From contig NW_026889767.1 in assembly GCF_033153115.1 (NCBI RefSeq), positions 62,001-126,000 of the forward strand: a stretch of 64,000 bases of DNA. The letters run 5' to 3'. Shown one piece after another: positions 53,985 to 56,900 of the stretch; the first letter of the stretch is position 1; each line of letters opens with the position of its first letter. Position numbers and translations under genes: made by a program. The DNA comes from Saccostrea echinata (lineage: Eukaryota). The notes beneath the pieces were generated by a model. The model made no database searches and was not told the origin of the DNA. It was given only the letters and a program-made list of their open reading frames with translations.

Positions 53985-56900
53985 CTATGATGTTGATTGG
54001 GGCTTTTTGACAACTTTGGCCTCTAACATTTTCTCTCTCTCTTGTTCCCGCTCCCGCTGGTGAACTTTTTGTAGATCCTCCTTTTGTTTTTGCTGCTGGA
54101 TCTTCACAGCTCGTCTCTATAATTTCAAATAGAAATTAAAGTCATACTGAATTTCAAGAATGATAAGAATTAAATGATGATATTATAGAAAACATGAGTA
54201 TCATTAAAAAAAAAAAAAATTAAAACATTCTCTCTGTTCACTCATATATAATGTTGCTTTAATGCTGATAATTTCCCAGAAGAAATTTTAAAATATTTTA
54301 CAATTTTAGCATAGCTTGCAAGACAAAACTGATTAAATAGAGACATTTTTAATTTGACAAATTTGAAAAGAAATAATTGACATTTACCCAGTAAGAGTTA
54401 TCTCTCTTATCAGAGTATCAAGGAACCTTACAATAGAAATTTGCAAATAATAAATCCTATAAAACATGCACAGTGCTAGATAAAAAATGTGCCTGAAAAA
54501 TACAAGTGCTCTGGATTTAACTTTGAGTCAAAAATTAACCTGATTCATAGCAAAAACTACTAATGCATGTGAATATTCTTTTTGTCCAGCTACATGCCTG
54601 TTGTATACCTATCAGTGAGATTTTTGCTTTATTTGGCATTCACAAATATACATACATTGAACAGGCAATTTACTTTAATTCTATTGTGGCGGTGAGACGG
54701 ATTTGATCGCCAGTGGCCAGATAGCTCAGTTGGTAGAGCACCTGACTGGAGATTCAGGGGGCCCTGGTTCGAATCCCGGTCTGGTCCACTGCATTTTTCT
54801 CCTCTCCTGTTACATTTGGTGCCGTGCCATGCCCTGGAAGTGACAGGTGAAAGACCTGCAAGGGATGAGCCTGGGTTGGAGTCTTTGGGGGGCCAAAGAC
54901 CTTTAAGGAGGGAGGAATGTGGTGGTCAGACGGATTCGATCGCCGATGGCCAGATAGCTCAGTTGGTAGAGCACCTGACTGGAGATTTAGGGGGTCCGGG
55001 TTCGAATCCCGGTCTGGTCCGCTGCATTTTTCTCCTCTCCCGTTACACTATGATCATCAGGGTAAACCTATAGATTTCTTTCTTTCACTTACCTTAAGCT
55101 TGGCAGCTTTCTCAGACAAAGCATTCATCTCTTTCTTGAGGTTGATCAACTTCATGTGATATTTCTTTGCTTGGGCCATCTATGGATAAGAGTGCTAGCA
55201 AATCAATTGCATTTAATAAAGTAATCATAGTAACTTTTAGAAGGAAAAGGACCCTTGTAATAAATAACATTGGACTCTATTCAGCCTCTTATAATTTCTA
55301 ATTTATAGAAATTGTTAGTGCAACTAACTGTTATACTTCAAAGGAAAATTTTCTAAGAAACACACTTGGCAATTCTGATGGCCAAACTATGTGATATACA
55401 TGTAGTATATTAAGTACATGTTATCCTAGACATTTATAAGTACATCTTGTTAAAGTAAACAAGATTTGGCATTTGTGTATATATGTATAATTATACAATC
55501 ATGTATTTAAGCTAAACATCAGGCCAAGCAGACAGTGTTGAGTCAAAATTACAATGAATTAATTTACATTTTTTAAACATCCATATGACAATGAATTATA
55601 ACAGATAACAGTTCAATAAAAGTTTTGTACATTAACCTGGACTTACAAATACAGTTGAACTGTGTACATTTATCTCAATACCCTGGATATGGCAAAGAGA
55701 GATGGAAGTCCTAATTTTGGTAGACACATCTTCTTTAGCCTCAATATCTCAAACTCTTTGATATCTCTCTGTTTTTTTCTCAGTCACTTCAAGTTTGAGA
55801 TAAGGAGGTTTGACTGGACAGCCATAAGTATAATATGGTTTTTAGCAACTAGCTGGTTCACAGGATTTTCACACACTCTACTTAACAAAATAATTCTTTA
55901 AGGATTCAGAGTTTCCAAGAATATGATGATGATCTGCTTACTGTTTTACTAATTTCCTCCATGTCTTGACAATCTGTAAACTTAGCATTCTCCTGCTGTA
56001 CGGACTCTACCAGGAACTGCTGATTATGCCTAAGGATAGAAAACATTAAAAATTATCAGACAATTGGTAGGAAATCTGTGAGTTTCCTCTACTGTAGAAT
56101 ACTTTTTTCCAGCTTTTTTAATCTGCTAATTTTAATGAGATAACTTTTGAAACCACTGTGAAGATTTTCACAATTTAATATTTGAAATACTACAGAGGAA
56201 TGGGGGGGGGGGGTTACAGTTATTTTATCCACACAACCAGTCGGTCTACTTAATGTACATTTTTAAAATTACTTGCCCATGCAGACTACTCATTTACTAG
56301 ACTGGGTCAGTCGGACGTGCCCTAGTGTCAAACCCTCTGCATGAAGTAAGAAGTTATCAGAAAATGTGTAATACAGTGAAAACTGTCTAATCTGACACCT
56401 GTGCAATCCATCACACTGTGAATTCCAGCGTTAAATTTCGTTCCCATTTTACTATTTTCCATGTTTTTTACACTGTGCAATCCGACACCCTGTCTATTCC
56501 GACACAAAATTCATCTCCCAGTGCATGTCGGATTAGACAGGTTTCACTGTATGTCTGATCTTCAGAATTCCTTTTTTTTCAATTAAAAGCAGTCTGAGAG
56601 AGAAATAATACAAGCCAAGACCATGTGAACAAATATATATAAATCTTTTAATTCTACATCTAATTCTATAAACCTTACATAAGGTCATCTAGTGAGCTCT
56701 TGGATTTCTGTAAAGGTGGCAGACAAATTTCCAGTAATCCTAATGACAACTTCTCCACCACTGATGGATCCACACTTGTCATTCCATCCTCCTCTGGATC
56801 CGCTCCTAAGTTTTCATTTACTTCTGGATCCACCTGTTTCTCCTCGTTTTCAGTTTTGGATTCTGTTGCTTGATTTTCACTTTCTTTAGGATCAAGACTT

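Follow-up and report, generated by a model that had tools for sequence, protein, structure and literature searches.

An intronic element with tRNA-like LTRs

Within the window, that is, the whole 64,000-nucleotide stretch of Saccostrea echinata contig NW_026889767.1 that was analyzed, an intron carries a 363-bp element with a tRNA-like unit in each of its two LTRs. The locus raises the questions of what this element is, which polymerase and which primer it would use to copy itself, and whether a cloverleaf with an 8-nt anticodon loop acts as a tRNA. Its features are as follows.

54117..55092, minus strand: host intron, 976 nt, GT..AG, holding the element in antisense
55093-55179, minus strand: upstream exon, 29 codons, Snapin/Pallidin-like
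54681..54684, plus strand: 5′ target-site duplication (TSD) CTAT (sequence, script, flank comparison)
54685-55047, plus strand: Helenus copy, 363 bp, flanked by the CTAT duplication (sequence, script)
54685..54814, plus strand: 5′ LTR, 130 bp, TG..CA (sequence, script)
54685..54714, plus strand: U3-like leader of the 5′ LTR, 30 nt (hairpin fold; decayed B-box/T-arm-like word seen by eye)
54715..54787, plus strand: tRNA-like unit 1, 73 nt (ARAGORN, Rfam)
~54722-54733, 54746-54753, ~54766-54776, plus strand: A box, 8-nt loop, and B box of unit 1 (boxes read from sequence)
54794..54798, plus strand: T5, predicted Pol III terminator of the 5′ LTR (read from sequence)
54815..54917, plus strand: noncoding interior, 103 bp, longest T run 3 (sequence, script)
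54817..54826, plus strand: PBS TGGTGCCGTG, complement of host tRNA-His(GTG) and its CCA over 10 contiguous bases
54905..54917, plus strand: PPT AAGGAGGGAGGAA, whose junction with the LTR has 18/19 bases of that of the Gypsy helper candidate
54918..55047, plus strand: 3′ LTR, 130 bp, TG..CA (sequence, script)
54948..55020, plus strand: tRNA-like unit 2, 73 nt, 8-nt loop at 54979-54986 (ARAGORN, Rfam)
55027..55031, plus strand: T5, where the genomic RNA is predicted to end (read from sequence)
55048..55051, plus strand: 3′ TSD CTAT (sequence, script, flank comparison)

The first-pass annotation had described a CTAT TSD, two 130-bp TG...CA LTRs, a PBS, a 103-bp interior, and a PPT, and inspection of the sequence, together with a script, placed every one of them where it had been reported. 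The 73-nt cloverleaf with its 8-nt loop and following T5 was likewise confirmed in each LTR by ARAGORN, Rfam, and the sequence; the T5 starts 7 nt past the end of the unit, and the T stem of unit 1 has one mismatch. The two LTRs are identical at 120/130 positions and differ at 10. The 30-nt U3 (54685-54714 and 54918-54947) is predicted to fold into a hairpin of −11.5 kcal/mol, computed without a shuffle control, and contains another B-box/T-arm-like word, which reads GGTTCGATC in most copies; a similar arm is present in a published Crassostrea gigas Helenus relative (PMC10886601). The pyrimidine tract following the last T5 (55027-55047) is partly complementary to the PPT (54905-54917). Pairing between the PPT and the 3′ LTR tail reaches −15.4 kcal/mol with 36 of 1000 shuffles equally stable, and the fold of the whole RNA has a z score of −1.73 with 5 of 100 shuffles equally stable, both weak signals.

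The element had also been placed 45 bp from a BLOC1S6 splice donor, and this distance holds, the nearest exon base being 55093. The exon at 55093-55179, which we take to be BLOC1S6, matches the Pfam Snapin/Pallidin family with an E value of 2.7e-4 and 21.8 bits, below the cut-off of 29.6, and no Pfam match was obtained for the downstream exon. In 4/4 runs of a related species, spliced reads connect 55093 with 54116. Elsewhere in the same intron (54392-54430), a word of ~39 nt with a short inverted repeat occurs in hundreds of RNA reads with unrelated flanks; it marks the conserved end of a different, very abundant repeat, which may be of the Helitron/MITE type.

A copy of a published Helenus family

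With a length of <1000 bp, two LTRs, no coding sequence, and a PBS and a PPT at the ends of the interior, the window copy is a TRIM of the Helenus class. The first-pass annotation had suspected such an assignment, which is supported by the structure, the 4-bp TSD, the tRNA-derived LTR, and a published consensus. A tRNA-derived SINE (SINE2), for which we expected a single tRNA head, a LINE-like tail, a duplication of variable length, and no LTRs, was ruled out by the paired LTRs, the PBS, the PPT, and the fixed 4-bp duplication. Membership in Cassandra or Ajax was also rejected, as an Rfam scan of 54500-55300, with hits admitted up to E = 1, gives a tRNA but no 5S. Helenus resembles these lineages in carrying a small-RNA-derived Pol III promoter in each LTR (the TRIMp3 concept) and in forming tandem LTR-interior arrays. 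However, the promoter is of the 5S type in Cassandra and Ajax and of the tRNA type in Helenus, and Ajax generates 5-bp duplications, whereas those of the window family are 4 bp long, as reported for Helenus in animals (PMC10886601).

The published consensus in question, Helenus-1_SaGl from Saccostrea glomerata (LTR 129, interior 103, TSD 4; Kojima 2024, Biology 13:119, PMC10886601, Table S1), has the architecture, sizes, PBS, PPT, and 8-nt loop of the window copy. Compared by eye with Data S1 of that paper, 339/363 positions (~93%) are identical: 99/103 in the interior (4 differences), 119/130 in the 5′ LTR (10 substitutions and 1 indel), and 121/130 in the 3′ LTR (8 substitutions and 1 indel). 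By the same visual comparison, the copy falls within the counting rule of PMC10886601, >90% identity across >90% of the consensus. Judging from this comparison, the window element is almost certainly a copy of the Helenus-1_SaGl family. Reads from the related species carry the published letter at all 12 interior and 3′ LTR substitutions and also contain the one-base shortening of the T5. Helenus-1_SaGl has the loop CCGGAGTT followed by T4, while the S. echinata genome has the loop CTGGAGAT followed by T5 (58/60 LTRs), and a term search of the whole supplement file of PMC10886601 found the LTR word ccagatagctcag in two families only. The window family is a species-level variant of the Helenus-1_SaGl family, with a few sites that look fixed in S. 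echinata. The novelty envisaged for the element is removed by this ~93% identical consensus; its class and family are already published, and the element itself is ordinary.

Other published families stand further away. Helenus-2C_CGi (C. gigas) and the Helenus-2_SaGl group have a His-type PBS and the same PPT as the window copy, and Helenus-5_SaGl has the same PPT with an Ile-type PBS. Helenus-2C_CGi carries a homologous tRNA-like unit with an 8-nt loop, but it and Helenus-2/-5_SaGl differ from the window copy in their U3 and interior and in having broken acceptor or anticodon stem pairs. Relatives of the Helenus-2 and -5 types also occur in S. echinata: loci L061-L090 hold other Helenus families, with a U3 of 26, 31, 34, or 35 nt and the same PPT, that by eye resemble the published Helenus-2 and -5_SaGl.

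The Helenus family in the S. echinata genome

In the 923-Mb genome, a DNA search that scored 40 of 1873 candidates yielded 47 matches, of which 44 span nearly the whole element with 91-100% identity; the window copy is 91-96% identical to these siblings, a similarity on a par with that to the Helenus-1_SaGl consensus. Copy number was also measured with short words. A 32-nt LTR word has 457 matches within 1 mismatch (control, 0), which identifies a dispersed, multicopy family, and the PPT-LTR junction motif, which includes several families, occurs 410 times (control, 1). Other copies possess LTR pairs and TSDs as well. Exact 4-bp duplications flank 21/30 loci and 5-bp duplications 0/30, the 30 loci being the best matches, chosen for their similarity to the window copy. 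Among the nine loci lacking an exact duplication, five adjoin further Helenus sequence, one has a mutated end, one shows a single mismatch, and two are unexplained. Two loci, L008 and L024, form one tandem array with CCTA repeated at its outer ends. Identity within LTR pairs ranges from 118/130 to 130/130, the identical pairs being those of L005 and L006, and the family therefore moved recently. At 120/130, the window copy is among the older members and is moderately old. L017 and L018 lie on different contigs and are identical in element size and in their flanks; they probably represent a duplicated or twice-assembled region.

Priming by tRNA-His and a candidate helper

The search word recovers 8 tRNA-His(GTG) genes and one captured copy from the S. 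echinata genome. As first read, the PBS matches the tRNA-His 3′ end, agreeing with the 8 host genes over 10 contiguous bases, CCA included. Sibling copies preserve traces of the primer itself. In L008 and L003, the interior of one unit begins with all 18 nt of the tRNA-His complement instead of the usual 10-nt PBS, the stretch of its tRNA primer that plus-strand strong-stop DNA copies. This 18-nt tRNA-His copy (L008 1865-1882) recurs among Helenus variants at L003, L039, L055, L056, L059, and L060. By BLAST, 6/30 fetched 18-nt PBS loci match Helenus, and in L059 the copied sequence extends further into tRNA-His-like sequence. L003 additionally holds a whole tRNA-His(GTG) copy (1422-1493; G000:C37, ~2976733-2976804) between two inverted Helenus LTRs; the array there is complex, and the fold-back arm measures 7 nt. 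The copy likely arose by read-through of the primer tRNA and subsequent fold-back or self-priming. Position −1 is A in 8/8 host tRNA-His genes. The G at −1 of the captured copy was not counted as a sign of a mature tRNA, since this base is also part of the fold-back arm. The captured copies in siblings are strong evidence that tRNA-His primes Helenus reverse transcription. The host genes lie in small clusters (L103-L106 and L108-L109; G000:C54), and all 8 have a near-identical 3′ trailer with no T run in its first 20 nt.

An autonomous Gypsy partner with a His PBS and a 4-bp TSD had been postulated, and one exists in the S. echinata genome. In six elements (L091-L100; G000:C9, C1, C5, and C3), an 18-nt His PBS is followed 6.3-7.0 kb downstream by a PPT junction. 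They constitute one family, ~90-98% alike over long internal alignments, with LTRs of ~1.2 kb and a length of 8.7-9.0 kb in the three copies measured. Interruptions occur in three of the six; the remaining three keep intact ORFs of 446 and ~1308 codons, pol lying in the −1 frame. Beyond these two, the candidate showed no further ORF of 200 codons. The pol order is PR-RT-RH-INT in the one copy scanned (L092). LTR pairs are 99.0-99.7% identical in the four elements examined, as in a young family. Exact 4-bp duplications flank 2/4 of the elements examined; a third has a one-base mismatch, and for the fourth one end was not found. The Gypsy PPT junction matches that of Helenus at 18/19 bases, and the LTR ends are TGTRGT..CCGGTTACA in Gypsy versus TGTGG..GTTACA in Helenus. 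Apart from the PPT junction, BLAST found no stretch shared by Helenus and the candidate. Other LTR elements also use this PBS: 22/30 fetched 18-nt PBS loci are unmatched to this family. Nonetheless, the same His PBS, the 18/19 PPT junction, the similar termini, and the 4-bp duplications make this Gypsy family a likely helper of Helenus, as far as sequence resemblance can tell. The main text of PMC10886601 names Gypsy-39_CGi, on its PBS only, as the His-primed autonomous counterpart of bivalve Helenus; in Fig. S2C, its PBS is the same as the 18-nt one of the S. echinata Gypsy, the two being compared by PBS alone. The shared PPT junction, the LTR tips, and the young Gypsy copies are additions to that work.

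Fold of the tRNA-like unit

ARAGORN calls both 73-nt units tRNA-??? with the four-base anticodon ggag, and Rfam RF00005 scores units 1 and 2 at 54.3 and 59.3 bits (gathering score, 29). An anticodon stem CCTGA/TCAGG closes the 8-nt loop CTGGAGAT and is followed by a variable region of 4 nt. The tRNA-derived sequence of each LTR contains box A (TRGCY..YGG) and box B (GGTTC) motifs as given in section 3.5 of PMC10886601. The loop CTGGAGAT, which in the window copy carries C32, U33, and a purine at 37, is found in 42/47 copies of the S. echinata family, and its four middle bases vary between families (GGAG, AGAG, AGTG, and AGTA). The main text of PMC10886601 leaves the 8-nt loop and Helenus terminators undiscussed.

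Of the stem pairs counted, 7 in the acceptor, 5 in the anticodon, and 5 in the T stem, each of the 17 is standard in the majority of the 47 copies, which were selected with a search pattern that favors intact units. No covariation was seen within the family among these 47 copies, their changes being scattered decay. Compared with a sister family (6 copies), acceptor pair 4:69 is C-G versus T-A and pair 5:68 is A-T versus G-C, with both sides changed; these two events, too few to test, hint at selection on the fold. The sister family is paired in 0/6 copies at 2:71 and in 0/6 at the last anticodon-stem pair. One Helenus LTR, at L007 1763-1835, is called tRNA-Ser(gga) by ARAGORN, which shows a route of Helenus LTRs into tRNA gene counts.

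Evidence bearing on transcription by Pol III

Transcription of Helenus by Pol III is proposed in PMC10886601 as yet to be validated, and that paper credits Cassandra alone with validated Pol III transcripts. For the window element, Pol III promotion is plausible and has some indirect support. A T5 is present in 58/60 LTRs of the S. echinata family, and in the 5′ LTR it precedes the PBS. Because the two LTRs are alike, Pol III would have to pass the first T5 and stop at the second to make a genomic RNA. The yield of that RNA would scale as f(1−f), with a weak terminator favored; T4-T5 is leaky as a Pol III terminator in animals. Intervening LTRs of Cassandra arrays are read through, according to the part of PMC7215508 consulted.

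T runs near the PBS and PPT measure 4-5 and 7-11, respectively, in 6/6 Gypsy copies and 3 in the window element and most copies of the Helenus family. Published interiors of Data S1, counted by eye in 3 of its ~9 parts with relatives as separate rows, have runs of 4 or more T in 3/86 and of 4 or more A in 41/86; by part, the T runs occur in 0/24, 0/31, and 3/31 and the A runs in 12, 2, and 27. The A-richness of retroelement sense strands could inflate this contrast. No T/A asymmetry was found in S. echinata copies, with 4 or more T in 4/33 units and 4 or more A in 5/33 before the tail. Several published Helenus LTRs, those of fish families and two Pinna families, have no T tract after the tRNA-like unit (PMC10886601 supplement). 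The T-run evidence is thus mixed. The scarcity of T runs in interiors is suggestive of a genomic RNA that Pol III would produce by read-through of a leaky T5, and we regard such an RNA as probable.

RNA data came from four runs of a related species, three of oligo-dT libraries and one of contigs only. In the oligo-dT reads, both directions are about equal even on exons, so that strand and ends are uninformative. Seven read ends at 55030 in 1/3 raw runs form a weak pile and were rejected as evidence of a transcript end. A search for runs returned none with half the words, and 20 of the 24 rows listed had shares of 0.11 or less.

Alternative explanations

A cloverleaf in each LTR invites the view that every LTR is a working tRNA gene, whose trimmed, CCA-tailed, and charged RNA would use the 8-nt loop as a four-base (+1 frameshift) decoder. 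The complete cloverleaf, with its standard pairs in most of the pattern-selected copies, the C32, U33, and purine 37 of the window copy, and the both-sided changes at 4:69 and 5:68 between two families of the same genome speak for such a decoder, which we nevertheless hold to be highly improbable. The loop of the closest published consensus, Helenus-1_SaGl, lacks U33 and purine 37 (PMC10886601 supplement), so the 8-nt loop is no pointer to a decoding tRNA; the middle loop bases differ between families, and the sister family is unpaired at the two positions given above. In the helper, pol is shifted by −1 relative to gag, so a +1 decoder would be of no use to it. A functional cytosolic tRNA gene has a 7-nt anticodon loop with a conserved anticodon, which the Helenus unit does not have, and Kojima also judged it unlikely that Helenus codes for a functional tRNA (PMC10886601). 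A decoding role of the cloverleaf is therefore unlikely from its sequence. That the tRNA-like RNA of the LTR primes the reverse transcription of its own element has next to no probability, even though a T5-terminated RNA of this kind would arise in cis. The LTR unit plus CCA needs a PBS starting TGG GGACC; the actual PBS starts TGG TGCCG and pairs with host tRNA-His over 10 contiguous bases, and it is tRNA-His sequence that sibling copies hold as a product of reverse transcription. The PBS mismatch and the tRNA-His captures refute this kind of self-priming, for which Kojima likewise found no complementarity (PMC10886601).

The genomic RNA could instead be made by Pol II, from the U3 or by read-in from a host gene, in which case the tRNA-like unit would be carried along as a passenger or would act as an RNA structure or insulator, and the T5 would do no more than end short Pol III by-products. 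A T5 would stop much Pol III, and one lies ahead of the PBS in 58/60 LTRs; Helenus reads are present in oligo-dT libraries of the related species, and the 33 local units lack a T/A asymmetry. The oligo-dT reads, however, are equally explained by copies within mRNAs, the U3 is only 30 nt long, the A and B boxes are the part conserved across families (section 3.5 of PMC10886601), and, compared with the helper candidate, T runs by the PBS and PPT are shortened to 3. Overall, we consider transcription of the genomic RNA by Pol II unlikely.

A proposed life cycle of Helenus

Taken as a whole, the account of Helenus as a tRNA-His-primed TRIM that is transcribed by Pol III and then packaged, reverse-transcribed, and integrated by a co-resident Gypsy family appears to us likely. 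TFIIIC would bind the A and B boxes, and Pol III would start at or just before the cloverleaf, which would act as a promoter and not as a decoding tRNA. Many transcripts would end at the first T5, after ~84 nt, while a read-through fraction would end at the second and yield a genomic RNA of ~317 nt whose repeated R region would be the whole tRNA-like unit. Reverse transcription is primed by tRNA-His, as seen in the sibling copies; the RT, RNase H, and integrase of Gypsy would act on the shared PBS, PPT, and LTR tips, and integration produces 4-bp duplications.

More tentatively, and on balance doubtfully, the LTR may have a dual output controlled by a half-leaky T5, in which read-through gives the genome and a stop gives an 84-nt precursor of a tRNA mimic, from >450 loci. 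RNase P, RNase Z, and the CCA enzyme would process this precursor into an abundant mimic with an 8-nt loop, and an acceptor stem kept by compensatory change would put the fold under selection.

Whatever their RNA, the 450-plus Helenus LTRs raise counts of tRNA genes through calls with odd anticodons, and masking is advisable. Within the literature searched, Helenus has been known so far from consensus sequences only. It can now be studied with a specific helper candidate, genomic proof of its primer, and a prediction of Pol III read-through, all of which are testable. If true, such read-through would explain both a terminator of only T4-T5 and interiors that avoid longer T runs. A dual-output LTR, if real, would, together with its young Gypsy helper candidate, make it tractable to study in an animal how an LTR parasite driven by Pol III escapes tRNA processing.
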